From Syntrophales bacterium (GTDB lineage: Bacteria > Desulfobacterota > Syntrophia > Syntrophales > UBA5619): a stretch of DNA of 64,000 bases. The DNA lies in the NCBI GenBank assembly GCA_023229765.1, contig JALNYO010000001.1:322993-386992 (forward strand), written 5' to 3'. Made by a program: the position numbers and the translations under genes. The notes beneath the pieces were generated by a model. That model was not told where the DNA came from and ran no database searches. It saw only the letters and a list, made by a program, of their open reading frames with translations. Positions 100 to 15,858 of this stretch are shown here, piece by piece. How positions within the stretch are numbered: the stretch's first letter is position 1; each line of letters begins with the position of its first letter.

Positions 100-546
100 T
101 TACTTTCCTGAAAAATCTTCAAGTATCAAAACATTAATGTCTTTCACTTTCTTCAAACCGGAGTCATTGGTTAAAAACATAGCAGCGCCATATAGGATTC
201 CGACAGCTATCTGAATTGCATCAGGAGTCCTGATTGCATATTTTGCCCGGAGCTTTGCCGACAATTCGGAAACTTCATGAACAATCTCATACGTTGTTAA
301 TCCTTCAGCGTGCAGCAATATCTCCCGGTATTCTTCGGCCAGAGATTCATTTTCCTTCTTGAATGGAAGGACCAATACCTCTAACAGTGTGATTGTTGAA
401 GTCAGGGCTTCAATGTTCCCGGCATCAATTTCAGCAAAAATCGGTCTTACTACGTTCAGATATTTAGGATCCTTTTCAATGAAATAGATAAAGGGAGCGG
501 TGTCGATACAAATTATTTTTCCTCGCAATTGATCGACTAACTCCAT
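100..546 (-). CDS. vapC: PIN-domain toxin (VapC family)
   Basis: 148 aa. Early acidic residue in IICIDTAPFIYF, then LLEVL, TPDAIQIA and FLTND motifs typical of PIN nucleases. The start overlaps the upstream small gene by 10 nt. Confidence 0.8.
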   Translation of the reverse strand: MELVDQLRGKIICIDTAPFIYFIEKDPKYLNVVRPIFAEIDAGNIEALTSTITLLEVLVLPFKKENESLAEEYREILLHAEGLTTYEIVHEVSELSAKLRAKYAIRTPDAIQIAVGILYGAAMFLTNDSGLKKVKDINVLILEDFSGK

Positions 547-767
547 GACTCTCTCTCCTTCTGAACATAATCATGCGCATCAATCCCTTTCCATAGGTTA
601 GCACCCAGTCCCTCAAGCTGCATAATGCTACTTTTTTTCTTTTGGCCGATGGATTTTTTTAGTCTGGCTGATATGATCTCCAACAGGGTCAACTGTTCTT
701 CTATGTTTAAAAAATTTATTCCTTTTACGCAGTCGCTATAGGTAATCGATGTTTTTCTTGCTTCCAT
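537..767 (-). CDS. Putative antitoxin partner of the PIN toxin
   Basis: Small ORF overlapping the vapC start. C-terminus ...LEGLGANLWKGIDAHDYVQKERESWS is typical of type II antitoxins. ATG at 767 has an AAGGA Shine-Dalgarno sequence; the ORF-track start at 791 has none. Confidence 0.55.
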   Translation of the reverse strand: MEARKTSITYSDCVKGINFLNIEEQLTLLEIISARLKKSIGQKKKSSIMQLEGLGANLWKGIDAHDYVQKERESWS

Positions 768-897
768 TTTGTCGTATCCTTTCAGTTTCATTCTTGGGCT
801 TCAAGTTCAATCATTTCCGATGCAATTCCTGTGCAAGTTTTCTGCCAAAACTTGAAACGAGAGTTAATATCCGGAAAGTTCTTTAACATTCTGGACC

Positions 898-2520
898 TTA
901 TCTACAAAAACCTCTCAGTGTTTCCAGCATATATCCCATCATTCCCTCCGTCATCCCCGGATACACCCCGACCCAGAAGGCATCGCGCATGATGCGGTCG
1001 GTCGTGGGCAAATCGCCAATCACCTGGTAATTTTTGCCGGCCTTGCGCATCTCGTCAAAACAAGGGTGCTTGATAAGATTACCGGCGAAAAGCATCCGGG
1101 TCTGGATTCCTTTTTGTTCGAGGTGGTTCACCATCATCTCACGGGTAAAGCCTGCATCTTCACGCACGGTGAGCAGAAAACCAAACCACGATGGATCAGA
1201 ATTTGCGGTAGCTTCGGGCAGAATGAAACGCTCCTCCAGGCCGCTTATGCCGTCACGCAGAATTTTCCAGTTTCGCTTACGCGCCTCGATGAAGGAAGGC
1301 AGCTTCTCAAGCTGGGCGCAACCAATGGCGGCCTGCATATCGGTTGCCTTCAAGTTGTAGCCAAAATGGGAATAGACATATTTATGATCGTAACCCAAGG
1401 GAAGTTCACCGAACTGCCGGTCAAAGCGATTGTGGCAGGTATTGTCCCGGCCGGGTGGGCACCAGCAATCGCGGCCCCAGTCGCGGAAGGATTCTACAAG
1501 CCGTTTAAGTTTTGAATCATTGGTATAGACAGCCCCGCCTTCGCCCATGGTGATGTGGTGGGCGGGATAAAAGCTTGATGTGCCGATGTGCCCTGATGTT
1601 CCGGTATAACTCCAAGAACCGTTTTGAAAATAGCGTGAGCCGAGGGCATCACAATTGTCTTCAATCAGCCAGAGGTCGTTCTTGTCGCAGAAGGCTTTAA
1701 CCGCCGCGAGATCAAACGGGTTGCCCAACGTATGTGCCAACATAACCGCTTTTGTTTGGTTTGAAAGCGCGGCCTCCAATTGCGTGACATCAATATTGCA
1801 GGTCGGAAGCGATATATCGACAAAGGCCGGCACGGCGCCATATTGGATGATGGGGGAAACGGTGGTGGGAAAAGCGGCCGCTACAGTGATCACTTCATCT
1901 CCCGGCTTGATCCGGCGTTCACCCAGCTCGGGCGAAGTAAGCGCCATGAAGGCCAGCAGATTGGCGGAGGAACCGGAATTGACTAATGAACAATGCTGCA
2001 CACCGAGGAACGCGGCAAACTCTTTCTCAAACTTCTCTGCATAGCGACCGGTAGTCAGCCAGAAATCGAGTGAGGAATCTACCAATGAGGTAATCTCGCG
2101 CTCATCGAAAACCCGACCGGCGTAAGGAATACGGTCCCCGGGGGTGAAGGAGCTTTTGGATGTCCGGGAATGAACACCATCGTAGTGGGAAACAACGGTG
2201 TTACGTACACTGGCTCGAAGCAGTTCATCGATTTTTGCATTGGACAGGCGACCGATACCGGCACGCTTGATGTTTTTTTCGGTTATCACCAGCACCTTAT
2301 CGGCCCGTATAACGCTCCTTTTGAGGATGGCGCCGCACTCAAGATCAGTTGGATCAATGACTACGGCAGAGGTGTCGAAACAGTAATTATCAACCTCACT
2401 GGTCATGTAGGCTACTGTAATATCTCCCAATTCTGATGATTGTGAAATGATAACGGCTGGGCGCACTTTTGAGCCGGCCTGATTGGTATAGGGAAAGTCA
2501 AGCAGGACAATTTCTCCCAC
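898..2520 (-). CDS. rfbH: Fusion protein: N-terminal PemK/MazF-like toxin domain plus full-length CDP-6-deoxy-D-xylo-4-hexulose-3-dehydrase (RfbH/DdhC, DegT/DnrJ/EryC1 family)
   Basis: N-terminus [26 protein letters not shown]...[24 protein letters not shown] matches the PemK/MazF pattern. The rest ([60 protein letters not shown]) matches RfbH end to end. It is one open frame. The likely start is GTG 2520 (AGGA upstream, 10 nt after the antitoxin stop); the ORF is open back to 2586. Confidence 0.8.
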
Positions 2521-2530
2521 CCGGGCATTC

Positions 2531-2788
2531 CTATTTGAGTTCAAAATAGGCCTCCCAGTCAACATTGGCATCATCATTTGTGTCAAAAAAGGCAGCCAGA
2601 CCTATTTGCTTGAACTCTTCATCGCTTGACCTTCGGCGGGCATGATACTCCGCAGCGGGGATTGTCGTCTCATTAGTTTCTTCTGACGGTATCACAATAA
2701 TATTGAGTTCTGCTGAAAGGATATCCGCAGGTATCGGCTCGATTAATTCAATTCGTCCCGCCTTATACTGCGCTTTTATCGCCAGCAT
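2531..2788 (-). CDS. Putative antitoxin (AbrB/looped-hinge-like N-terminus, acidic C-terminus) cognate to the PemK-like domain
   Basis: 85 aa: [20 protein letters not shown]...NIIVIP, then ...[23 protein letters not shown]. Sits immediately upstream of the toxin domain and overlaps the rfbG 3' end by 26 nt. Confidence 0.5.
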
Positions 2789-3881
2789 GACTGTCCTCCT
2801 TTTGTGGCTTTTCTTCGTACTTGCGGATCTGCTCCAGACAGAACTGATGCATGTCTTTTGTTTGAGGTTCCGAGTAAAATTCTTTATACCAATCCGCTGT
2901 CATTTGCAAACATTCGTCAATGGTGAGAACGCTGTGCCAGTGGAGATAAGCGTGGGCCTTGTCGCAATTCAGCTTGAGAAGGTTCGCCTCATGAAGGGAC
3001 TGCGGATCTGATAGGTCATTCCAGGAACCTTTGCCCCAGTATTTTATCAATCGCTCAGCCATTTCGGCGACGGTCAGATGACTGCTGTCCTCCGGGCCGA
3101 AGTTCCAGGCGTCGGAATATTTTTGAGGGTTTTGCCACAGGGCGGCGCCGAGCAGCAGATAACCACCGAGGGGCTCCAGTACGTGCTGCCAGGGGCGAAT
3201 GGCATTGGGGTTGCGGATGCCGATGGGTTGCTTACTGCTCAGGGCGCGGATGCAATCGGGAACCAAGCGATCTGCACCCCAATCGCCGCCGCCGATGACG
3301 TTGCCCGCCCGGGCGGAGGCGGCGCCGATCGGCCTGCTCTGTGCGGCGTTCGGAGAAAAGAACGACTTCAGATAAGCGCTGAAAACAAGTTCCGCACACC
3401 CTTTGGAGGCGCTGTACGGGTCATGACCGCCCATCGGGTCATTTTCCCGGTAGCCCCAAACCCATTCCCTGTTTTCATAGCATTTGTCGCTGGTGATGTT
3501 GACCAGGACTTTGACGCTGGAGGTTTTACGGACGGCCTCGAAAACGTTGACCGTGCCGCCGACGTTCGTGTCGAAGGTCAATTTCGGCTCTTCGTAGGAG
3601 CGGCGAACAAGGGGCTGGGCGGCGAGGTGGAAAACAAATTCCGGCTGATATTTTTCAAAAGTCTCCATCAACCGGTCGAGATCGCGGATATCTCCGTGGA
3701 TATGGGTGATCTTTTCCCGGAGCTTCGTTGCCTCAAAAAGGCTTGGCTCGCTTGGCGGATCAAGGGAATAGCCGATGACATCCGCCCCCAGTTCCTTCAG
3801 CCAAATCGCCAGCCACGACCCCTTGAATCCGGTGTGGCCGGTGATCAAAACCCGCTTACTTTTGTATATGTTATCGAACAA
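2763..3881 (-). CDS. rfbG: CDP-glucose 4,6-dehydratase
   Basis: 372 aa. N-terminal VLITGHTGFKGSWL Rossmann motif, YSASKGCAE catalytic motif, and the length and overall pattern of RfbG/DdhB. Confidence 0.9.
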   Translation of the reverse strand: MFDNIYKSKRVLITGHTGFKGSWLAIWLKELGADVIGYSLDPPSEPSLFEATKLREKITHIHGDIRDLDRLMETFEKYQPEFVFHLAAQPLVRRSYEEPKLTFDTNVGGTVNVFEAVRKTSSVKVLVNITSDKCYENREWVWGYRENDPMGGHDPYSASKGCAELVFSAYLKSFFSPNAAQSRPIGAASARAGNVIGGGDWGADRLVPDCIRALSSKQPIGIRNPNAIRPWQHVLEPLGGYLLLGAALWQNPQKYSDAWNFGPEDSSHLTVAEMAERLIKYWGKGSWNDLSDPQSLHEANLLKLNCDKAHAYLHWHSVLTIDECLQMTADWYKEFYSEPQTKDMHQFCLEQIRKYEEKPQKEDSHAGDKSAV

Positions 3882-3884
3882 TGA

Positions 3885-4205
3885 TCAATTCTCCGAAGGT
3901 TTGTACACGGAATATCTTTTCCAAAACGGGTCGAAACGGATATGGCTGTCGTGCAGGTAGTTGGGGCTGCAAATAGAGACATAATCAATCTTTTTATTTT
4001 TTTCGCGGCGGTATTTGTCCACGAAGCGGTCAATAAGCTCAAATTCGGAAAAAAATGCCGCTTTTGGGGAAAAACTGTCAATTATGCCGATGCTGTCGTT
4101 TTTGTCGAGGGCGGCAACGAGGGTGTTTCCGGTATCCTTGATGGCTTTCAGATGTCGGGGGACGATGTCGCCGGCAACGTCGATAAGCGCAAAACTATTT
4201 GTCAT
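3885..4205 (-). pseudogene. Truncated Gfo/Idh/MocA (WbpB-like) oxidoreductase, N-terminal ~90 codons only
   Basis: MTNSFALIDVAGDIVPRHLKAIKDTGNTLVAALDKNDSIGIIDS...YVSICSPNYLH matches the N-terminal Rossmann part of WbpB-type dehydrogenases (normally >300 aa). The frame then diverges and stops 4 nt before the rfbG start. Confidence 0.55.
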
Positions 4206-5944: not shown

Positions 5945-6038
5945 CTGACGGCATGGTTGTTGATTCCGTTTCCTCATTCGTTTATCTGGTTTTTTAGAGA
6001 AATCGGGAGGCTGGCTGGTTTTGCTTGATGCCGCAAAA

Positions 6039-7508
6039 ATGGAAAAGGTAAATAGTAAAGTTGTCCTGGTTGTGGACGATTACGCGCCCACCCGGATTCT
6101 AATTTTGGAGGCGCTTGAGCAGCAGGGTGAGTACGAGGGCCTGGAAGCCGCAAACGGGGTTGAGGCGATTGCGCTTTTAGAAAAGAATCCCTGTGATATG
6201 GTGATTACCGACGTCATGATGCCCGGTATGGGCGGCATGGAGTTGCTGCAGTCTCTGCGGGAGAGGAATTTTGATATTCCGGTAATCATGATGACCTCCC
6301 GCCCCGCTGTTGATCTTACCGTTTCCGCGATGAAAAGCGGCGTCGTTGATTTTCTGCAGAAACCCTTTGATATCGATAAAATGATCTTCAAGGTTGACCT
6401 GTATCTCCGGGAGGGCTCTGGTCCCACACCTGTTTCCCGGCAGGATTCCCTGGCCATGAAAGAGGAGCGGGAGCAACTCTCCCTGAAAAGCTATGTCTAT
6501 GAGGCGGTTGAACGAGCCGCTGGCGACAATGATGAGATTTTTCAGACCATTGTCGAATTGGCGATGCGGATTGTAGATGGTGAGAGCTGCGCGCTTTTCC
6601 TCTACGATAAAGAATATCGTAAATTTTATCCGAAGGCGCAGAAGGGAGAGGATTACGGTTTTTATGGGGCCAACACCATCTCAACCATAACCGATATCTA
6701 TCAGGAGGCGGTCGATAAAAAAGACGCGCTGATGGTGCATTCCGACAGCGACCCTTTTATTTCCCCGTCCATTATTTGCGCGCCCTTGCTGATCCACGGA
6801 AGCGTTCTCGGGGTGCTGAGCATCCGGAAAAAGAGCCTTGGCGGGGTTTTTACGAAGAACGACCTCCAGCAGATTTTGGGCCTGGCGAAAAGGGCCTCCC
6901 TGAACCTCGAAAACAAAATCCTCTATGAAAGCATGTTTGATAATTTGACGAGCACCTTTATGGCGCTTGTGGCGGCGATTCAGGCGCGGGATCACTACAC
7001 GGAGGAACATTCCCGCCGCGTTACCGAGACCGCCGTCAACATAGCTCAACAAATGGGGTTATCTCCGACCGAGGTGGAGCGGCTGCGGGTTGCCTCGCTG
7101 CTTCATGATCTCGGGAAAATATCCATTCCCGACAACGTGCTGCTCAAACCGGGCGGACTTACTGATAAAGAATTTGAAATTATCAAACAGCATCCCGTTA
7201 ACGGCGATGCGATATTGAGTCATATTGCCCTGCTTGACGATGAGCGCTTGATAGTTCGACACCACCATGAAAGGTGGGATGGCCGGGGCTATCCCGACGG
7301 CCTTGCCGGGAATGATATCCCGCTTTTGGCGCGGATCATGGCGGTGGCCGATTCCTTTGACGCGATGACAAGCGATCGTCCGTATCGAAAAGGTATGAAT
7401 ATTAAAGCGGCGGTAGGCGAGCTGATAGCAAATAAAAACAAGCAGTTTGACGAGAAAATCGTGGATGTTTTTCTGGAAATTTTGGCGGACGATAATAGCT
7501 TTTCCTGA
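6039..7508 (+). CDS. Response regulator with REC, GAF and HD-GYP domains (c-di-GMP phosphodiesterase type)
   Basis: VLVVDDYAPTR...DMVITDVMMPGMGG (receiver), a central GAF-like region, then HDLGKISIP...HHERWDGRGYPDGL (HD-GYP). An alternative TTG start lies at 6021. Confidence 0.9.
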   Translation: MEKVNSKVVLVVDDYAPTRILILEALEQQGEYEGLEAANGVEAIALLEKNPCDMVITDVMMPGMGGMELLQSLRERNFDIPVIMMTSRPAVDLTVSAMKSGVVDFLQKPFDIDKMIFKVDLYLREGSGPTPVSRQDSLAMKEEREQLSLKSYVYEAVERAAGDNDEIFQTIVELAMRIVDGESCALFLYDKEYRKFYPKAQKGEDYGFYGANTISTITDIYQEAVDKKDALMVHSDSDPFISPSIICAPLLIHGSVLGVLSIRKKSLGGVFTKNDLQQILGLAKRASLNLENKILYESMFDNLTSTFMALVAAIQARDHYTEEHSRRVTETAVNIAQQMGLSPTEVERLRVASLLHDLGKISIPDNVLLKPGGLTDKEFEIIKQHPVNGDAILSHIALLDDERLIVRHHHERWDGRGYPDGLAGNDIPLLARIMAVADSFDAMTSDRPYRKGMNIKAAVGELIANKNKQFDEKIVDVFLEILADDNSFS

Positions 7509-7633
7509 ATCTTCATTTATCTCTGTGAAAAATAGAAAATGCCCCATACTATCTATGCTGGCAAAAACATCAATGCGCGTATTTCCAGTTATTATAAAAA
7601 TGGCGACAACCTGTTTTCCCTGGGGTGGCTGCC

Positions 7634-8626
7634 ATGCGGTCCTTAGTCAGGCTTAAAGCCGGCGAGCTTAAGGTCGGCATGTATGTAGTAATGCCCGCCT
7701 CCTGGGATGAGCACCCCTTCCTGAAGAATGAGTTTATTCTCGATTCGGCAAAACAGATCGATAAGATAATAAAGTACGGCATGGAATTTGTCCTGGTTGA
7801 CGCCGGCAAGAGCTTGATCCCGGTTTCGCCATCCGCCGGCGAACGGCCCACTGCTGCTGAAATGCCGGAGGCGCCATCCGCCGATAATTCGCCTGTTGTT
7901 CCAGACGAGCTTTACGAGGCGATTCATAACGCCTCGGTGCTCCCCGTCGAGAAAGCCCGCTTGGTGAGGAAAAACAGTCTGCTGATGATGGAGGGTCTCC
8001 TGCAGCAGCCGACGGCGGATAATATCCGGGAAAGCAAAAAGGCAATAACCGAAATTGTGCAGCTTATACTGAAGGACGACGATGCCGCGAGCGCCCTTAT
8101 CAAGATAACAGATCATGATTATTACACATATACCCACTCGGTCAATGTAGGATTTTGGGCGGTGTCGCTGGCGAAGGTGTTGTTCCGGGATTCATTTCTG
8201 CATGATCTTCATGAATTGGGGTGCGGGTTTTTCCTGCACGATATCGGCAAGGTCCGGATCAAGCAGAGCATTATAACGAAGCCGGGGCGTTTGTCGGAGG
8301 AGGAGATGAACGAAATGCGCAGGCATCCGGTGTTTGGCTTCCGGATTCTCGACGAGGCCCACCAGCTTACCGAAGAGTCCAAGATAATTGTTCTTCAGCA
8401 TCACGAACGGTATGGCGGCAATGGCTATCCCAAGGGGCTGCGGGGTGATCAGATACACATCTATGCGAAAATATGCTCGCTTGCCGATGTTTACGACGCT
8501 CTGACGTCAGACCGTCCCTACCGGAAGGGGAGTAAGCCTTTTGAGGCACTGAGGATTATGAAAGATGAAATGATCGGTCATTTTCAGCAGGATCTTTTTG
8601 AAAAATTTGTGCGACTGCTGCTGTAA
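7634..8626 (+). CDS. HD-GYP domain protein with DUF3391-type N-terminus
   Basis: N-terminus LKAGELKVGMYVVMPASWDEHPFL (DUF3391 pattern). C-terminus HDIGKVRI...HHERYGGNGYPKGL. An alternative GTG start lies at 7625. Confidence 0.85.
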   Translation: MRSLVRLKAGELKVGMYVVMPASWDEHPFLKNEFILDSAKQIDKIIKYGMEFVLVDAGKSLIPVSPSAGERPTAAEMPEAPSADNSPVVPDELYEAIHNASVLPVEKARLVRKNSLLMMEGLLQQPTADNIRESKKAITEIVQLILKDDDAASALIKITDHDYYTYTHSVNVGFWAVSLAKVLFRDSFLHDLHELGCGFFLHDIGKVRIKQSIITKPGRLSEEEMNEMRRHPVFGFRILDEAHQLTEESKIIVLQHHERYGGNGYPKGLRGDQIHIYAKICSLADVYDALTSDRPYRKGSKPFEALRIMKDEMIGHFQQDLFEKFVRLLL

Positions 8627-8663
8627 TTGAATGAAAGTTTTAGCAATTGGCGGATAATATTTT

Positions 8664-8692
8664 TTGACAACGCCAATAGTTTATTGTAGATT
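8664..8692 (+). promoter_or_regulatory. Sigma-70-like promoter candidate for the PilZ gene
   Basis: TTGACA (8664-8669), 17 nt, TAGATT (8687-8692). Confidence 0.4.
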
Positions 8693-8789
8693 CCCCCACA
8701 TTTATTGTCATTGTGATTTTAATGTCATTAACGCCGGACATTGAGGCATTGAGGATTGTTCCCTGCAAATAAAGTAGTTATGTGACAAA

Positions 8790-9446
8790 ATGTCGGAAAA
8801 TATTAAAGAAAAAATTATCGATCTTCCCGGGATTTCGTTTGGAATGATTATTCAGATTCAGGCAGAAGGGTTGGGAATGTCCCACAGCCGCCTGATCGGC
8901 GTAGATTCCGGGGCGTTTCTTATAGTAAAAACTCCTCCCATAATCGATATAGCCACTAAACTATATGATAAGAATAAGATAGTTATCCGCTATTTTTCCG
9001 CTGGATGGGTTTATGCGTTTCGCTGCACTCTGCTTTCTCTGATCAAAGAACCATCGCGTTTGTCCATTCTTTCTTATCCTGAGAACATTGAAAAAATCAA
9101 TATCAGGAAACATGACCGGGTTGACTGCAATATCCCGGTTGAGATGATAATAGAAAAGAAAACATATAATGGCATTGTGACGAACATAAGCGCCGGCGGC
9201 CTATCTTTGGAGATTGCCAAAACAGGGGATGAGGAGGCGCCGCAATTGAATATCCAGGATGTTATTTCCCTGACGGTGCAGCGCGAGGCGGAGCAGGCTA
9301 CATCTTTAAAAACGATAGTCCGCAATATTAAAATAGAGCGGACCGTGATGAAAATTGGCATGGAGTTCTACGCTCAGGGTGCTTCACAGGGTGAAGGGCA
9401 GGGCGAAAAAAAGTGGCTGGAGGATTTAGTTTCTGAAAATCTGTGA
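8790..9446 (+). CDS. PilZ-domain c-di-GMP receptor, YcgR-like (flagellar brake type)
   Basis: RKHDR (RxxxR) followed by NISAGG (N/DxSxxG). The N-terminal half resembles the YcgR N-domain. Confidence 0.8.
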   Translation: MSENIKEKIIDLPGISFGMIIQIQAEGLGMSHSRLIGVDSGAFLIVKTPPIIDIATKLYDKNKIVIRYFSAGWVYAFRCTLLSLIKEPSRLSILSYPENIEKINIRKHDRVDCNIPVEMIIEKKTYNGIVTNISAGGLSLEIAKTGDEEAPQLNIQDVISLTVQREAEQATSLKTIVRNIKIERTVMKIGMEFYAQGASQGEGQGEKKWLEDLVSENL

Positions 9447-9504
9447 TTTTTTAAGCTGATTATAAATAAGCAGTATTCCTAATTTTTTTTCTTTGGGGGA
9501 GTTG

Positions 9505-10293
9505 ATGCGACTTAACGAATTATTCAGTTTGCGCGGCAAGACTGCGCTGGTTACAGGCGGAGGCCGGGGAATAGGGAAATTCATCGCCACAGGTTTTGCC
9601 GAAGCCGGCGCTGATCTGCTGCTCGTCTCTCGGAAGATGAAAAATCTGGAGGCGACGGCCTCGGCTTTGGCTGCTGAATTTGGAGTCAGGGCAATTCCCC
9701 TTGCCTGCGATGTTTCAAGTCCCGAAAATATTGAGGCGATGCTGCAAAAGGCGCGGGAGTATTTCCCGCGGATCGATATTCTTGTTAATAACGCGGGCGC
9801 TTCCTGGGGGGCGCCGACGCTGGAATTCCCCCTTGCTCAATGGGATCGCCTGTTCGATGTGAACGTGCGCGGGGTCTGGATGATAACCCAGAAGGTGGCG
9901 CAGCTTATGAAAGAGCAAGGCGGCGGCAATATCATCAACATCTCGTCTGTGATGGGTTTCCGGGGATCTGAAGAGCTGGTGCATCCGGCGGTTCCCTACA
10001 ACTCCACCAAGGCGGCGATCAACCTGCTGACGATGAACCTTGCCGTCAAGCTTGCGCCTTATCACATCCGCGTCAACGCGATTGCCCCCGGTTTTTTCCG
10101 GACCGACATGATGGCCTATATTGAAAAGCCGGAATTCAAGGCCGCCCATGACCTGACGCTGTCCGCCATTCCGCTCGGCCGCATCGGCGATATTGACGAC
10201 ATGAAGGGGCTCGCCGTTTTTCTTGCCTCCAACGCCTCCGCCTACATGACCGGGCAGATACTGATCAACGACGGCGGCATGCTTGCGAAATAG
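9505..10293 (+). CDS. SDR-family oxidoreductase
   Basis: TGGGRGIG glycine motif, NNAG, and YNSTK (YxxxK). The ORF is open from TTG 9493. Confidence 0.85.
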   Translation: MRLNELFSLRGKTALVTGGGRGIGKFIATGFAEAGADLLLVSRKMKNLEATASALAAEFGVRAIPLACDVSSPENIEAMLQKAREYFPRIDILVNNAGASWGAPTLEFPLAQWDRLFDVNVRGVWMITQKVAQLMKEQGGGNIINISSVMGFRGSEELVHPAVPYNSTKAAINLLTMNLAVKLAPYHIRVNAIAPGFFRTDMMAYIEKPEFKAAHDLTLSAIPLGRIGDIDDMKGLAVFLASNASAYMTGQILINDGGMLAK

Positions 10294-10471
10294 CAAAAAT
10301 AAAAATATCAATCACATCTTATGTTTTGTGCAATAATTGGGGATGGGTATAAGGATAATCCCCCATGACGGCATGCCGCCACAAAGCAGGATGAAAATTG
10401 GCGGGATGCGCTCCGTCGCGTCCGTGGCGGCTTTATAGGCATGAAGCTTCGCTTTCAGTTAAGGAGAAACA

Positions 10472-11296
10472 GTGAATAAAGAACCGACAGACGCCGCGAC
10501 CGTTGTTCTGCTTTCCAACCGATCTTCGGGCGGCTGCGAGATATTCCTTATGAAACGGGTGAAGAGCAGCACCTACCGGGAGGAAATTTATGTTTTCCCC
10601 GGCGGCCTGCTGGAGGAGGCCGATCTTGATCCGGAATTGGAGGGCTGCGCGGAGGAATTCAGTGGTGTAAAAGCGAAGCGTCTTCTCCAGGAACCTGATA
10701 TTTCTGAATCTTTGGCCCTTGGCCTGTTTATGGCGGCGATAAGGGAAACCTTTGAAGAAGCCGGGGTTCTGCTGGCGCGTGATTCCTCCGGGGGAGTCGT
10801 TGACCTGTTGGAACCGGATGCGGCCTCCCGTTTTGCCGGCTATCGCCGGGAAGTCTATCAGCGGCGGCTGTCCTTGAGCGAGTTGGCCAGAAGGGAGAAG
10901 CTGGTTTTTGCGCCTGATCTGCTTGTGCCCTATTCGCATTGGATCACCCCGGAGATTGTACCCCGGCGTTTCAATGCCCGCATCTTTCTAACATTCCTTC
11001 CTGCCGGTCAGAAGCCGGAGCATGACAATCTCGAATTGACGGATTCCTGCTGGCTAACCCCCGTGCGGGCGATTGCCGCATACAGCGCCCGCCGGATGTT
11101 CATGATGCCCCCCACCATAAGGACAATTGAGGAACTGAATGAATCCCCCGATGCCGAAGAATTATTCACGACATCCCGCAGTCGAAAAATAGAGGTCATC
11201 CTCCCCGAGGCGTTCCGGACGGCAGAGGGTTTAAAGGTGCGTCTGCCGGATGGTCGGGAATATTTCCCCGCGCCAAAGTCGCTGGAGGCAAACTGA
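10472..11296 (+). CDS. NUDIX hydrolase family protein
   Basis: Nudix-box-like segment GGLLEEADLD...AAIRETFEEAGVLL. GTG start preceded by AAGGAGA. Confidence 0.7.
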   Translation: MNKEPTDAATVVLLSNRSSGGCEIFLMKRVKSSTYREEIYVFPGGLLEEADLDPELEGCAEEFSGVKAKRLLQEPDISESLALGLFMAAIRETFEEAGVLLARDSSGGVVDLLEPDAASRFAGYRREVYQRRLSLSELARREKLVFAPDLLVPYSHWITPEIVPRRFNARIFLTFLPAGQKPEHDNLELTDSCWLTPVRAIAAYSARRMFMMPPTIRTIEELNESPDAEELFTTSRSRKIEVILPEAFRTAEGLKVRLPDGREYFPAPKSLEAN

Positions 11297-11394
11297 GCCC
11301 CGGATGTGCAAGCGCGAAGACGTAGCGTGGCTTGAATTAAATATATTGTCCTCGGAATTGTTATGTGCCAGTAATCATTAGGAGGGGGCTACCC

Positions 11395-12528
11395 ATGAAA
11401 AGGGGCCGGGATTTCTTCTTTGCTGCTTTTTCCGTCGCGCTGCTGGTTTTTTTGACGATCCTGTTTTCCTCGTGTCAAAGGGAAAAGCCGCAAATTAAAA
11501 TCGGTTTCGCCGGCGGTCTGACCGGTCGCTATTCTGATCTTGGAACTGCGGGTAGAAACGGGGCGAATCTTGCCGTCGAGGAGATCAACCAAACGGGCGG
11601 CATCAGAGGTCGTCAGGTTTTGCTGATTTCAAAAGATGACAAGCAGGATGAGTAGACGGCCGTCCGGGTGGATCGGGAACTGATCGCGGAGGGGGCAGTG
11701 GCGATCATTGGTCACATGACAAGCTCCATGTCGGTAGCCGCCCTGCCGCTGATGAACGAAAAGGGGATTGTGCTGCTCAGCCCGACGTCCACCACGAATG
11801 TTTTGAACGGCAAAGACGATTTTTTTATCAGGCTTGAGCCTGCCAATAAAAAGCAGACGGAGGATCTGGTTGTCTACGCATCTAAAAAGATGAGACTTAA
11901 AAGGATTGCGGCTGTTTACGATCTTTCCAACCAGAGTTACACTGAAGATTATTTCCGTCTTTTTTCTTCGCTTTTCAGGGAGCTTGGGGGAGAAATTGTT
12001 GCGGTTGAGACTTACAAAAGCACCGCTGGTTTCTCTTTTGCAAAGATTGCATCCCGACTGCTGAAGAACAAACCGGAGGGAATTTTATTAATAGCAAATG
12101 CCCTTGACGCCGCCGACTTTTGTCAGCAGATCAGAAAAGCCGGTTCGCGGGCCGTCATTCTTTCTTCCGGATGGGCGATGACGGAGAGTTTTTTAAGCAA
12201 TGGCGGAAAGGCTGTGGAAGGTGTTGTTTTTGACAATTTGATAAACGTTAACAGCCGCAATCAAAGATATATTTGGTTCAAAAACAGTTATAAGCTCCGT
12301 TTTGGAGAATATCCGGGTTTCGGCGCCGTTCATGGTTACGAGGCGGCCCGCCTGCTTTTGGACGCGCTCAAGGTAAACGAAGATCCGAAACGATTGAAGG
12401 AAACAATTCTCGGGCTTAAAGGGGTTTATGGATTATTCGGTGATTTCAGGCTTGATCGTTTTGGCGACGCCGAAAGGGATTTTTTTATAATGTCTGTAAA
12501 GGGCGGACATTTTCAACAGTTGGAGTAA
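11395..12528 (+). pseudogene. LivJ/Peripla_BP_6-type ABC substrate-binding lipoprotein interrupted by one in-frame TAG (11653-11655)
   Basis: AGGAGG then ATG 11395. Signal peptide plus lipobox LFSSC. ORFs 11365..11655 and 11668..12528 are in the same frame. The TAG falls inside the conserved DDxxDxxxA...GAVAIIGH region. Confidence 0.7.
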
Positions 12529-12531
12529 GCT

Positions 12532-15500
12532 ATGCGCAGCCGTTTTACAATCAGAAAAGCCTTGACGTTAAACTTCATCCTTGTGGCCATTCTGCCCCTG
12601 GCGCTGGTCGGCGCCATCGCTCTCCAGATATTTTCCAGAACCATGGAACAGGATATATCCAATAGAAACATACAGATTGCCCTTGCACTGTCGGGAGAAA
12701 TAGACAGATTCATCGCCGAACCGCTCCGGGTTCTGGCGCTTGTCAACGACCGCACCGGATACACGCGGCAGGGCGTCAATCCTGATGATTTTCTGCGCCT
12801 GCTGCAGGGTCGGTTCGATGTTTTTGAACGGATTGAATTAGTCGATCGGCAGGGTAGAATAGGATATACGGGGCCTTTGCAAAAGGAGCGGATAAACACG
12901 GATATATCCGGACAGCCCTTTTTCAGGGAAGCGCTGGCAACGGGGCAGGTCGTCTTTTCGGATACCTTCCCCTCTTTGTTTACCGGTTTGCCGACAATCG
13001 CCGTGGCCCTGCCCGGGAAAGAGACGGTTGCCATCGGCTATATCAACCTTGCCGCACTTAAAGGCATTATCAATAAGGTCAGCATAGGAAAGAAAGGTTA
13101 TGCCGTCGTATTCGACCGGCTCGGCAACATCATCGCCCATCCCGAACAGCGGCTTGTTGACGAGCGGGTAAACATTAAGCAGGTCGAACCGGTCAGGCGG
13201 GCCTTAAACGGTGAAACCGGAACCTTTCCCTACAGTTTCCAAAATCAGCAAAAAATTGGCAGCACGGCGATCGCCTACGCCACCGGTTGGGGGGTGTTGA
13301 TAGCCCAGTCTGAGGAAGATGCTTTTGGCAAGATTGCGGAAATAAGAACTATTTACCTGACGAGTATGGCCGTTACTATCATTCTGGCATTGCTTTTAGC
13401 CGCTCTGGTTTTGAAAAAGCCCCTGCGTTCCGTGTCCGGTCTGGTTGCTGCCGCGGGAAAGATTGCCGAAGGAGACTACCGACTCGAAGATGTGCCGCCC
13501 AGTTATCCGGAAATAGATTTGCTGGTGGACGGATTCAAAGGGATGGTCGAGGAAATTGCCAATCGTGAGAATGCCTTATTGAAAACAGAAGAAAGATACC
13601 GGAATCTTGTCGAGGGGAGCTTTGACGGGATATTCGTCCAGAAGGGCCTGAAGATAATCTTCGTCAATCATCGCTTTTGCGAGATGCTGGGCTACGAAGA
13701 AAATGAGCTGCTCGGGGAGGAGCATTGGCGCATCTATGCTCCCGAATATCGCGAAATTACAAAGGAGAGAGCCATAGCGCGCCTGAAAGGCGAGGTTGTG
13801 ACGCCGCGCTATGAGGTAAAACTGCTGCGTAAAGACGGATCTTCGTTTGCGGGGGAGATCTCGGCCCGGGTTATAAAGATCGAAAATAAGCCGGGCATTC
13901 AGGTCTGGGTAAGGGACCTCTCGGAGCAGAAGCGCGTGGAGGCTCAGCAAGCGCTTTCCGAACAGCGTTTTGGCGATCTATACAATGCCGTCTCCGATTT
14001 TGTCATGACGCAGGACCTCCAGGGTCGTTTTCTTTCCGTGAACAGGGCTATGTGTGATGCTCTCGGTTTTTCCCGCCAGGAATTCATCAATTCGCAGGTT
14101 TCCGATTTCATGAAACCGGAAATGGTTCCGCTTTTTGAAGCCGAATACCTGTGCAACCTCAAGGAACATGGCCATTATGAGGGGACAGCCGCCTATTTTA
14201 CCAAAGATAAGCGCAAGATATACCTCGAGTACAAAAGCGATCTTATCCGTCCCCCGCAGGGTAAGCCTTTTATCAGTGGCATCGCCCGGGATGTCACCGA
14301 ACGTATTCTTGCCGGCAGGGCGATCCGGAAAAGCGAGGAAAATATGCGGGCGGTGCTGGATGCCTCCCCCAATCCGATCGTGGCTTACGATCCGGTCGGT
14401 CGTGTTCGTTTTATCAACAGGGCTTTTACCAACATTTTCGGTTGGACGCTGGACGATTTGCAGGGAAAACCGATTCCTTTTGTACCGGATGATCAGAGGG
14501 ACAAAACAGAGGGGCCCATCAGGGAACTGTTCAGCAGGAAAGAGCCGGCGCCTATAACGATGGAGACAACGCGTCTGACCAAGGATGGAACAATTCTGGA
14601 TATTTATGTAAGCGCCGCGTTGATCCTCGACTCGAAGGGAGAGCCGGCGGGGATGGTTGTTTCGCTTTCGGATATAACGCAGAAGAAGAAGATGGAGGCG
14701 AATCTTCAGCAGGCGCAGAAGATGGAGGCCATAGGTCTCCTTGCCGGCGGCATTGCCCATGATTTCAACAACATGCTGATGGGAATCCAGGGGAATGTTT
14801 CGCTTGCCCTCCTCAATGTGGGCTTGGATGACAGGCTGCGCCGGAACATCGAAAACATCGAAGCGCTGGTGGGCAGGGGGGCAAGCCTGACGCGACAGCT
14901 TCTCGGGTTTGCCCGGGGCGGGAAGTACGAGGTCAAGCAACATGATTTCAGTGAGATACTGAAGGAAGAGGGGGAGCTTTTTGGCGACACCAGAAAAGAC
15001 ATAGTGATAGAGATAAAGTCTGCGCCGGATCTATGGAAGGTAGAGGCTGATCGCTCCCAGATGGAGCAGGTGTTGATGAATCTCTTCGTCAATGCCGGTC
15101 AGGCGATGCCGACCGGGGGCCATCTTTATCTGAATGCCGGAAATGTCATTATTGATGATAATTTTGTAAGGCCCTTCGATATCAGAACCGGCAGGTATGT
15201 TATGTTTTCAGTGATGGACACGGGTCAGGGAATGGACGAAGCCACGAAAAAAAGGATATTTGAGCCGTTTTTTACAACCCGGGAAAGGGGAGAAGGCACC
15301 GGGCTTGGCCTTGCCTCCGTTTACGGGATAATTAAAAATCATGGCGGCTTTATTAACGTTTACAGTGAAACAGGCAAGGGCACGTCCTTTAATATTTACC
15401 TGCCGGCAAGCAATTCCGGGACGGCAAAAATTGAACCGGCGTCCGGAAGAGAAGCGGGACTTATCAGAGGAGAGGGAACTATCCTCTTGGTCGATGACGA

Positions 15501-15858
15501 GCAGATGATTCTGGATGTAGGAAAAGTGATGCTGGAAGCCATGGGGTATAAGGTTTTCACCGCCGCCGGCGGCAGTGAAGCTATCGCAAAATTCACCGCC
15601 GTCAAAAACGGGGTCGGGGAGGTGGAAAAGATCGATCTGGTCATTCAGGATATGATTATGCCGGAAATGGGGGGTGGCGCTGTTTTTGACCGCTTGAAGG
15701 AGATCGAGCCGAATGTACAGGTACTCCTTTCCAGCGGCTACAGCATCAACGGCCAGGCCAAGGAGATACTCGCCCGCGGCTGTCGGGGTTTCCTGCAGAA
15801 GCCGTTTTCGATGGAGGCGCTGAGCCGCAAGGTGTCTGAGGTTATGAAGGCTCCGTGA
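12532..15858 (+). CDS. Hybrid sensor histidine kinase (periplasmic Cache-like domain, HAMP, about three PAS, HisKA, HATPase, receiver)
   Basis: TM-flanked extracytoplasmic domain, PAS-like repeats, HDFNNMLMGIQG (H-box), GTGLGLASVYG (G2 box), and a C-terminal ILLVDDE...QDMIMPEMGG receiver. Confidence 0.9.
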   Translation: MRSRFTIRKALTLNFILVAILPLALVGAIALQIFSRTMEQDISNRNIQIALALSGEIDRFIAEPLRVLALVNDRTGYTRQGVNPDDFLRLLQGRFDVFERIELVDRQGRIGYTGPLQKERINTDISGQPFFREALATGQVVFSDTFPSLFTGLPTIAVALPGKETVAIGYINLAALKGIINKVSIGKKGYAVVFDRLGNIIAHPEQRLVDERVNIKQVEPVRRALNGETGTFPYSFQNQQKIGSTAIAYATGWGVLIAQSEEDAFGKIAEIRTIYLTSMAVTIILALLLAALVLKKPLRSVSGLVAAAGKIAEGDYRLEDVPPSYPEIDLLVDGFKGMVEEIANRENALLKTEERYRNLVEGSFDGIFVQKGLKIIFVNHRFCEMLGYEENELLGEEHWRIYAPEYREITKERAIARLKGEVVTPRYEVKLLRKDGSSFAGEISARVIKIENKPGIQVWVRDLSEQKRVEAQQALSEQRFGDLYNAVSDFVMTQDLQGRFLSVNRAMCDALGFSRQEFINSQVSDFMKPEMVPLFEAEYLCNLKEHGHYEGTAAYFTKDKRKIYLEYKSDLIRPPQGKPFISGIARDVTERILAGRAIRKSEENMRAVLDASPNPIVAYDPVGRVRFINRAFTNIFGWTLDDLQGKPIPFVPDDQRDKTEGPIRELFSRKEPAPITMETTRLTKDGTILDIYVSAALILDSKGEPAGMVVSLSDITQKKKMEANLQQAQKMEAIGLLAGGIAHDFNNMLMGIQGNVSLALLNVGLDDRLRRNIENIEALVGRGASLTRQLLGFARGGKYEVKQHDFSEILKEEGELFGDTRKDIVIEIKSAPDLWKVEADRSQMEQVLMNLFVNAGQAMPTGGHLYLNAGNVIIDDNFVRPFDIRTGRYVMFSVMDTGQGMDEATKKRIFEPFFTTRERGEGTGLGLASVYGIIKNHGGFINVYSETGKGTSFNIYLPASNSGTAKIEPASGREAGLIRGEGTILLVDDEQMILDVGKVMLEAMGYKVFTAAGGSEAIAKFTAVKNGVGEVEKIDLVIQDMIMPEMGGGAVFDRLKEIEPNVQVLLSSGYSINGQAKEILARGCRGFLQKPFSMEALSRKVSEVMKAP

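Follow-up and report, generated by a model that had tools for sequence, protein, structure and literature searches.

An in-frame fusion of a MazF/PemK-like domain to the deoxysugar enzyme RfbH, preceded by an antitoxin-like gene, in a glycan operon of a Syntrophales bacterium

A gene in which a MazF/PemK-like toxin domain runs in frame into the nucleotide-sugar enzyme RfbH was analysed in a Syntrophales bacterium (assembly GCA_023229765.1, contig JALNYO010000001.1, positions 322,993 to 386,992). This whole stretch of 64,000 nucleotides (nt) is referred to as the window, and coordinates are those of the window unless another locus is named. The fusion architecture itself is near-certain. The toxin-like domain, a helix shared with the enzyme and a small antitoxin-like gene directly upstream make up a cassette between rfbG and the body of rfbH, and it is judged rather probable that the fused MazF domain, a predicted ribonuclease (RNase), and its partner form an addiction or conflict module that has become entrenched in the surface-glycan locus. 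The features of the fusion and its cassette are listed below; residue numbers, here and throughout, are those of the 540-amino-acid product read from GTG 2520.

898..2544, minus strand: fusion gene mazF-like::rfbH (list of open reading frames (ORFs), Pfam PF02452 and PF01041, NCBIfam RfbH, start-codon and Shine-Dalgarno analysis, homologue lengths)
2242..2520, minus strand: MazF/PemK-like domain, a predicted beta-barrel, residues 1-93 (PF02452, alignment to MazF structures, AlphaFold2, ratio of nonsynonymous to synonymous substitution (dN/dS))
2158..2241, minus strand: junction helix, single and continuous in the model, residues 94-121 (AlphaFold2 with DSSP, profile ends)
898..2124, minus strand: RfbH/E1 core, residues 133-540 and the stop codon (NCBIfam, comparison with 3bcx, blastn against the unfused locus L011)
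2531..2788, minus strand: partner gene of 85 amino acids, antitoxin-like (homologues, upstream ORF at fused loci, AlphaFold2, dN/dS)
2125..2882, minus strand: cassette, comprising the rfbG 3' tail, small ORF, MazF domain, helix and linker (blastn against L011)

An earlier note on this DNA had described one minus-strand frame, 898..2586, holding two units, and the ORF list and the Pfam and NCBIfam profiles agree with that description. The frame encodes 562 amino acids counted from TTG 2586. Profile searches of the kind suggested in the note placed both units above their cut-offs. PemK_toxin (PF02452) was matched by residues 2-103 (E 1.1e-9, 38.9 bits against a cut-off of 23.1, profile positions 3-104 of 109), and the N-terminal domain scanned alone scored 43.3 bits. 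DegT_DnrJ_EryC1 was matched by residues 142-535 (E 1.9e-87), and the NCBIfam RfbH equivalog NF011936 was matched at 728.7 bits, against a cut-off of 423. No in-frame stop codon lies between the PemK and RfbH units and, as had also been noted for the junction, there is no in-frame ATG, GTG or TTG with which RfbH could restart between residues 79 and 145. The start of the gene required some revision. GTG 2520, to which the earlier note had drawn attention, stands as an alternative; TTG 2544, with GGGAGG 6 nt upstream, is the likelier start, being at least as good as GTG 2520 and better than TTG 2586, which is unlikely to be used. Translation from TTG 2544 would give a product of 548 amino acids, and this is the commonest length among homologues with the same type of N-terminal domain as the window.

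The N-terminal domain was compared with toxins of known structure. A profile built from all types of the domain matched Staphylococcus aureus MazF (4of1 and 4mzm) in the PDB with E-values of 5e-6 to 1e-5, and further matches were to Bacillus subtilis EndoA (4me7, 4mdx and 1ne8), Mycobacterium tuberculosis MazF6 and Bacillus anthracis PemK. In the HMMER alignment to 4me7, R20-P21 of the fusion falls on R25-P26 of B. subtilis MazF, T40 on T48 and S69 on S73. R25 and T48 are the catalytic Arg/Thr pair of the B. subtilis enzyme, equivalent to R29 and T52 in Escherichia coli MazF; the predicted catalytic residues of the fused domain are R20, T40 and S69. Among the best 120 RfbH homologues, 84 carry an N-terminal domain of ~105 amino acids. 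Within these fused proteins R20 and P21 are each present in 84/84, T40 in 76/84, with Ser in six more, and S69 in 79/84. AlphaFold2 placed beta strands within residues 3-92, with per-residue confidence (pLDDT) of about 86-96 except in the loop at 11-20. A Foldseek search with the whole fusion model listed only aminotransferase-fold rows, so a MazF superposition was not obtained. By these sequence tests the N-terminal domain belongs to the MazF family, as the earlier note had proposed, and its active-site positions are intact; we infer that it is an active RNase.

Selection on the parts of the cassette was estimated against an 85%-identical relative (L013). The dN/dS was 0.12 for the N-terminal domain and 0.09 for the RfbH core; the small ORF gave 0.17-0.18, and the helix with the linker 0.30. 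Because the domain has a dN/dS of 0.12 and its catalytic residues are conserved, it is kept by selection and is not decaying.

The two units do not simply abut. The match to the PemK profile extends to residue 103 and that to the RfbH profile starts at residue 99, an overlap of five residues (99-103). A structure prediction of the fusion, which the earlier note had called for, was made with AlphaFold2 from a 120-sequence alignment and gave a confident two-domain model (mean pLDDT 84.4, predicted TM-score (pTM) 0.84). DSSP assigned a single helix to residues 94-121 of this model (pLDDT 88-96), followed by a short, non-helical linker at residues 122-132 (pLDDT 74-78). In the model the MazF domain and RfbH share this junction helix, the former as its C-terminal and the latter as its N-terminal helix, which upholds the merging of helices read from the sequence beforehand; the helix sequence differs by cassette type and is specific to each. 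The lower confidence and non-helical form of the linker would suit the production of two proteins from the one frame, through an internal RfbH start or through proteolysis in the linker. This is considered very unlikely, as the junction is a continuous and confident helix that includes RfbH's own N-terminal helix, and the reading frame is kept in all homologues. An internal restart of RfbH was rejected on the absence of start codons described above.

The enzyme part was found to be whole. As NF011936 covers residues 99-539 (profile positions 7-436 of 440), RfbH is complete, in line with the earlier note, and apparently functional. The core is 51% identical to the Yersinia E1 dehydrase 3bcx, with a TM-score of 0.90 (normalised to target) and a Foldseek E-value of 1.6e-44. 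The active-site His220 of E1 is conserved, the corresponding segment of the window protein aligning with E1 residues 216-226; this His (H321), which replaces the aminotransferase Lys, is invariant across the 120 homologues. On these comparisons the enzyme part is a bona fide pyridoxamine phosphate (PMP)-dependent CDP-6-deoxy-D-xylo-4-hexulose-3-dehydrase (RfbH/E1). Five fused homologues (P0020, P0010, P0074, P0117 and P0017) have low-complexity inserts that keep the frame and occupy two common positions in the core, for example 'STIQQFNDSPLQQFNDSTIQQFNAS...' and 'SQLHNFSPSA'/'SQLFNFSTSA'. Small repeat elements that entered in frame are a possible source of them; no such insert is present in the window protein.

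The small ORF upstream of the fusion is tightly packed between its neighbours. It is preceded by a Shine-Dalgarno sequence, AGGAGG, at 2795..2800, and overlaps the 3' end of rfbG (stop at 2763) by 26 nt, an arrangement that agrees with the earlier description of the cassette as integrated in the sugar operon. It ends 10 nt before GTG 2520 and overlaps the start at TTG 2544 by 14 nt, and the small gene is translationally coupled to the fused rfbH. Its 85-amino-acid product has 47 homologues, which are 'hypothetical' or unnamed save for one evident misannotation, and none has a Pfam domain. A small ORF that overlaps or abuts the fusion start is present upstream at 17/17 other distinct fused loci examined, as well as in the window, so that the antitoxin-like upstream gene claimed by the earlier note proved to be a conserved one. 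The table of fused loci has 20 rows, made up of the window and 17 distinct loci, with three rows repeating loci already included; the upstream ORFs in it encode 71-111 amino acids and represent all seven sequence types of the cassette. No small ORF was found at the three unfused rfbG-rfbH loci examined.

The small proteins share a common plan, consisting of a beta-rich N-terminus ('M.A[LIV][KR]...G.[IL]....IP......[IL]I[IV].P'), an acidic linker and a Trp near the C-terminus, which is W78 in the window protein and invariant in the homologue alignment. By hhalign, the small proteins of type A are homologous to those of the other types (probability 88%, E 2.9e-6). The AlphaFold2 model of the small protein had a mean pLDDT of 63.5, with an N-terminal hairpin of moderate confidence and a low-confidence C-terminal half. 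Type II antitoxins that fold on their toxins usually look like this, with an ordered N-terminus and a disordered C-terminal half, and the low-confidence half is antitoxin-like in this respect. Over 15 loci, divergence of the small protein followed that of the N-terminal domain (Spearman correlation 0.77) and not that of the RfbH core (-0.07). Taken together, these features mark the small protein as a cognate, antitoxin-like partner of the N-terminal domain.

A plasmid of Methanohalobium evestigatum (NC_014254.1; locus L023, 550..1115) carries a stand-alone PemK that is 30% identical to the N-terminal domain of the window. It is accompanied by an AbrB/MazE-type antitoxin ending '...EEEDETWKDL', which resembles the C-termini of type B/D small proteins ('SEDVWNDL', 'EEDEVWK'). 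This C-terminal motif is the only similarity between that antitoxin and the small proteins (hhalign probability 10.6%). The resemblance is too weak to count as evidence, but as a lead it hints at the acidic Trp tail as the toxin-binding element.

The fusion is not unique to the window genome. Searches with the 540-amino-acid query returned dozens of proteins of 536-603 amino acids, from independent samples, with 61-90% identity over 99-100% of the query. The fused homologues come from metagenome-assembled genomes (MAGs) of at least six phylum-level groups, the named sources being Syntrophales, Desulfuromonadaceae, Verrucomicrobia, Sphingomonadales and Dissulfurispiraceae MAGs. One carrier is from a named species, Desulfonauticus submarinus (WP_159427682.1), and a search with the N-terminal domain gave an incomplete fusion from Ghiorsea. 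When species-representative genomes were scanned with a single type-A peptide pattern, at least nine loci were found, which added MAGs of Geobacter, Desulfobacteraceae, Kiritimatiellaeota, Nitrospirota and Desulfohalobiaceae. The earlier note had recommended a search of related genomes for the fusion; 84 of the top 120 homologues carry it. Relatives of the N-terminal domain with >40% identity that reach past the domain end all continue into RfbH, and those PemK proteins that clearly stand alone have about 38% identity at most. An N-domain search of a representative library returned only fragments and distant stand-alone PemK proteins, the full-length fusions presumably being clustered with RfbH representatives. 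In plasmid and phage collections no fusions were found, only stand-alone PemK at 28-30% identity.

The distribution bears on the origin of the fusion. The gene could in principle be a decaying toxin-antitoxin (TA) insertion, which the earlier note had raised, or a sequencing or assembly artefact, in which a stand-alone mazEF pair lost its stop codon through a recent indel or misassembly. Glycan loci are rich in TA genes (VapBC in the window; HicA, PIN and AbiEii elsewhere) and one truncated cassette exists, in L021, as would suit decay. Nevertheless, the same junction occurs in >80 independent sequences from different samples and phyla. As the fusion recurs in independent samples, a local indel or misassembly is excluded as its origin, and the behaviour of the >40% relatives, all of which enter RfbH, also counts against it. 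The idea of a decayed insertion does not stand against purifying selection on both domain and small ORF, the retention of the catalytic residues and the spread of the fusion across phyla. For the fusion family as a whole decay or artefact was rejected on these grounds; it is scarcely credible as an explanation.

The fused N-terminal domains fall into several sequence types. Clustering of those among the top hits gave at least six (A, with 37 members including the window; B, with 32; C, with eight; then D, E and F), and a seventh (G) was found in L021. Identity between types is about 20-25%, whereas the RfbH cores are ~72-91% identical to the window core regardless of the N-domain type. The second-closest core to that of the window, at 89% identity, belongs to an unfused enzyme (P0041). 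In a neighbour-joining tree of the cores, cassette types and unfused enzymes are intermixed. When the window was compared by blastn with the unfused locus L011, homology was found in rfbG (84%, 3845..2883) and in the rfbH core (87.5%, 2124..889). The limits of the cassette, 2125..2882, follow from the lack of L011 homology between these two blocks.

Rearranged cassettes were observed at two loci. In a Desulfobacteraceae MAG (CAIMCT010000123.1; L014, 19..2971) two MazF::RfbH genes lie in tandem, of type A and then type F, the second with a type-F small ORF of its own (1895..2125); between their RfbH cores DNA identity is 93% over 437 nt. A Desulfohalobiaceae MAG (CAJXJU010000032.1; L021, 350..3808) carries a cassette array that opens with a type-G small ORF and fusion gene. 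Next come a type-A small ORF and a type-A toxin domain truncated after about 71 residues, which joins a 73-nt copy of the rfbG 3' end that is 90% identical to L021 240..312. The array ends with an ORF of 95 amino acids and a type-B small ORF with its fusion gene. The L021 array looks like orphan cassettes left by recombination. Since tandem and orphan cassettes occur elsewhere, the cassette can be regarded as swappable. The earlier note had suggested that the fusion might couple toxin activity or stability to O-antigen synthesis; the evidence favours a self-contained toxin/partner unit that evolves independently of the enzyme core. The comparisons with P0041 and L011 point to a gain or loss in the recent past, and across the loci cassettes are gained, lost, duplicated and left as orphans.

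These data are consistent with the following scheme. A cassette of three parts, the small protein, the MazF domain and the rigid shared helix, would have been inserted between rfbG and the body of rfbH, and would use the operon's own transcription for its expression. The N-terminal domain would be an endoribonuclease that the small protein restrains with its C-terminal tail, which is acidic and bears the Trp, in the manner of MazE and MazF. For lack of an internal start codon, RfbH would not be made without the toxin domain, and frameshift or nonsense loss of the cassette would cost the cell 3,6-dideoxyhexose synthesis. With the toxin domain inseparable from RfbH translation, the cassette would therefore act as an entrenched addiction or conflict module. 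The toxin might be freed once a labile partner is not replenished, for example on loss of the locus, shut-off of its transcription or phage infection. That the two proteins form an active TA pair is put at roughly even odds.

A bolder version is offered tentatively and is the less likely to hold. It takes the cassettes to be an unrecognised class of conflict element, in which a hypervariable toxin/immunity-like pair colonises the 5' end of a conserved glycan gene and ties growth arrest to glycan synthesis. Such a pair would be fused in frame and would spread through homologous recombination between the rfbG and rfbH sequences on either side of it, and cell survival would come to depend on ongoing expression of the 3,6-dideoxyhexose operon. 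Alternatively, the pair might sense the cofactor or substrate state of E1, or a phage-induced shut-off. Either version would link growth arrest at the RNA level to synthesis of the glycan, a phage receptor.

Several points weigh against an addiction or conflict module. Its biological role, be it addiction or abortive infection, is purely speculative, and the role of the conserved Arg and Thr could be structural or in ligand binding instead of catalytic. The 85-amino-acid protein and its relatives have no significant match in Pfam, NCBIfam or PADLOC, the sole hint of an antitoxin family being AF2212-like (E 0.52, in 1/43 members). The small-protein profile retrieved nothing from the PDB at E-values up to 10, and Foldseek gave no fold match, the AlphaFold2 model of the small protein being too poor for its hits to have meaning. 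No conserved promoter or operator was detected upstream of the small ORF by a promoter, operator and terminator scan with alignment; as the Shine-Dalgarno sequence is the only conserved element there, classic TA autoregulation is not evident. The neighbour-joining tree of the cores is poorly resolved. Lastly, as most carriers are MAGs, tandem arrays could partly reflect misassembly, but the two L014 copies are only 93% identical.

The lack of an autonomous promoter or operator, and of any recognisable antitoxin or DNA-binding domain in the small protein, would also fit a MazF fold that has been exapted and is no longer toxic. The N-terminal domain and its partner would then be a regulatory or structural appendage of E1, with possible roles in control of dimer assembly, in docking of a reductase or Fe-S donor, or in binding of operon mRNA for autoregulation, and the domain would either have ceased to cleave RNA or do so without harm. 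The rigid attachment through a shared helix, modelled as one confident unit, agrees with such a role. So does the absence of an E3 reductase among the Pfam-annotated genes of 11 loci with gene tables, and that of rfbF (glucose-1-phosphate cytidylyltransferase) from the 64-kb window, which cuts the operon off at its left end; in most other related loci rfbF lies ahead of rfbG. However, a docking partner of a conserved enzyme is expected to be conserved itself, yet the N-terminal domain and small protein are ~20-25% identical where the core is ~80% identical, and the two co-vary only with each other. The 89% core identity to an unfused homologue indicates that close RfbH enzymes work without the appendage. 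The Arg, Thr and Ser positions of MazF are retained in all types, and the orphan and tandem cassettes resemble the dynamics of conflict systems. Exaptation is accordingly thought rather unlikely, and the entrenched addiction or conflict module is the preferred reading.

The neighbouring features of the window are as follows.

2763..3881, minus strand: rfbG, CDP-glucose 4,6-dehydratase, the upstream operon gene (TIGR02622, 507.5 bits against a cut-off of 278)
100..791, minus strand: second TA pair directly downstream of the fusion gene, outside the fusion and given for context (ORF of 84 amino acids and PIN ORF)

Directly upstream of rfbG is an ORF of 106 amino acids (3885..4205, minus strand), which is probably a truncated gene because it matches only the N-terminal Rossmann part of GFO_IDH_MocA. 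In the downstream pair, the 84-amino-acid ORF (537..791, minus strand) has no Pfam hit and overlaps by 10 nt a VapC-like PIN-domain ORF of 148 amino acids (100..546, minus strand; PF01850, E 1.9e-14). Related glycan loci also carry HicA, PIN and AbiEii genes. On the plus strand, 6021..15858 encodes two HD_5 proteins, one of them a response regulator that combines GAF with HD_5 of the HD-GYP type, as well as a PilZ protein and a large hybrid histidine kinase with Cache and PAS domains. These genes suggest cyclic di-GMP signalling and have no evident link to the fusion.

Full-text literature searches found no description of a PemK/MazF-RfbH fusion, paywalled papers being outside their reach, and the TA census of Makarova et al. 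(2009) does not mention one. Papers that name PemK together with DegT, or toxin-antitoxin systems together with RfbH, proved by title and abstract to deal with other subjects, and in one of them (PMC7285500) 'DegT' had matched an author name. The earlier statement that no precedent is described holds in so far as no paper was found, and fails in that public databases contain such fusions by the dozen under the plain name RfbH, so that the names conceal a toxin domain. If the proposed reading is true, the rigid and heritable attachment of a MazF domain to an enzyme of nucleotide-sugar synthesis in many phyla, with a co-evolving partner and exchange of cassettes, would show a new route by which a TA module entrenches itself, and possibly a new cellular link between growth control and surface-glycan synthesis. 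The analysis also adds an unannotated family of antitoxin-like proteins of ~85 amino acids and offers a defined, testable system, for which D. submarinus is the named-species carrier.

The cassette can be set beside four known systems. As in MazEF and PemIK (Kid-Kis), its N-terminal domain scores above the Pfam threshold and keeps the catalytic Arg and Thr, and its alignment with MazF of S. aureus and of B. subtilis covers the whole length. The order is antitoxin first, with a small, translationally coupled gene, and the partner has an ordered N-terminus and an acidic, Trp-containing C-terminus predicted to be disordered. Type II toxins are almost always small free proteins, whereas this toxin is not a free protein of ~110 amino acids and has its last helix fused to a 45-kDa PMP enzyme. 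The partner falls into none of the families MazE, AbrB, RHH and PHD, and the pair lies inside a biosynthetic operon with no promoter or operator of its own detected. The enzyme resembles the E1 dehydrases (RfbH/DdhC/AscC; 3bcx, CDP-6-deoxy-L-threo-D-glycero-4-hexulose-3-dehydrase) in its fold, its active-site His and its position after rfbG. It differs from 3bcx in that the fusion adds ~100 N-terminal residues of toxin fold and replaces the enzyme's own N-terminal helix with a cassette-specific one.

Polymorphic toxins (CDI, Rhs) likewise combine a conserved body with a hypervariable toxin domain and an adjacent small cognate protein for each type, and show cassette swapping, tandem copies and truncated orphans, as seen here in L014 and L021. 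Unlike theirs, the variable domain of the fusion is N-terminal, the partner gene lies upstream as in TA systems, and the conserved body is a cytoplasmic metabolic enzyme. No secretion, delivery or trafficking domain was found in the fusion, the only other domain in Pfam and NCBIfam scans being the PMP enzyme. Because a delivery domain is lacking, this is not a polymorphic toxin system, and only the cassette behaviour is shared. In Myxococcus, MazF-mx is a solitary MazF regulated by MrpC (PMC2701414). Both are MazF-family toxins found outside a two-gene setting and wired into host physiology; in contrast to MazF-mx, the cassette toxin is fused to an enzyme and has retained a dedicated small partner gene.

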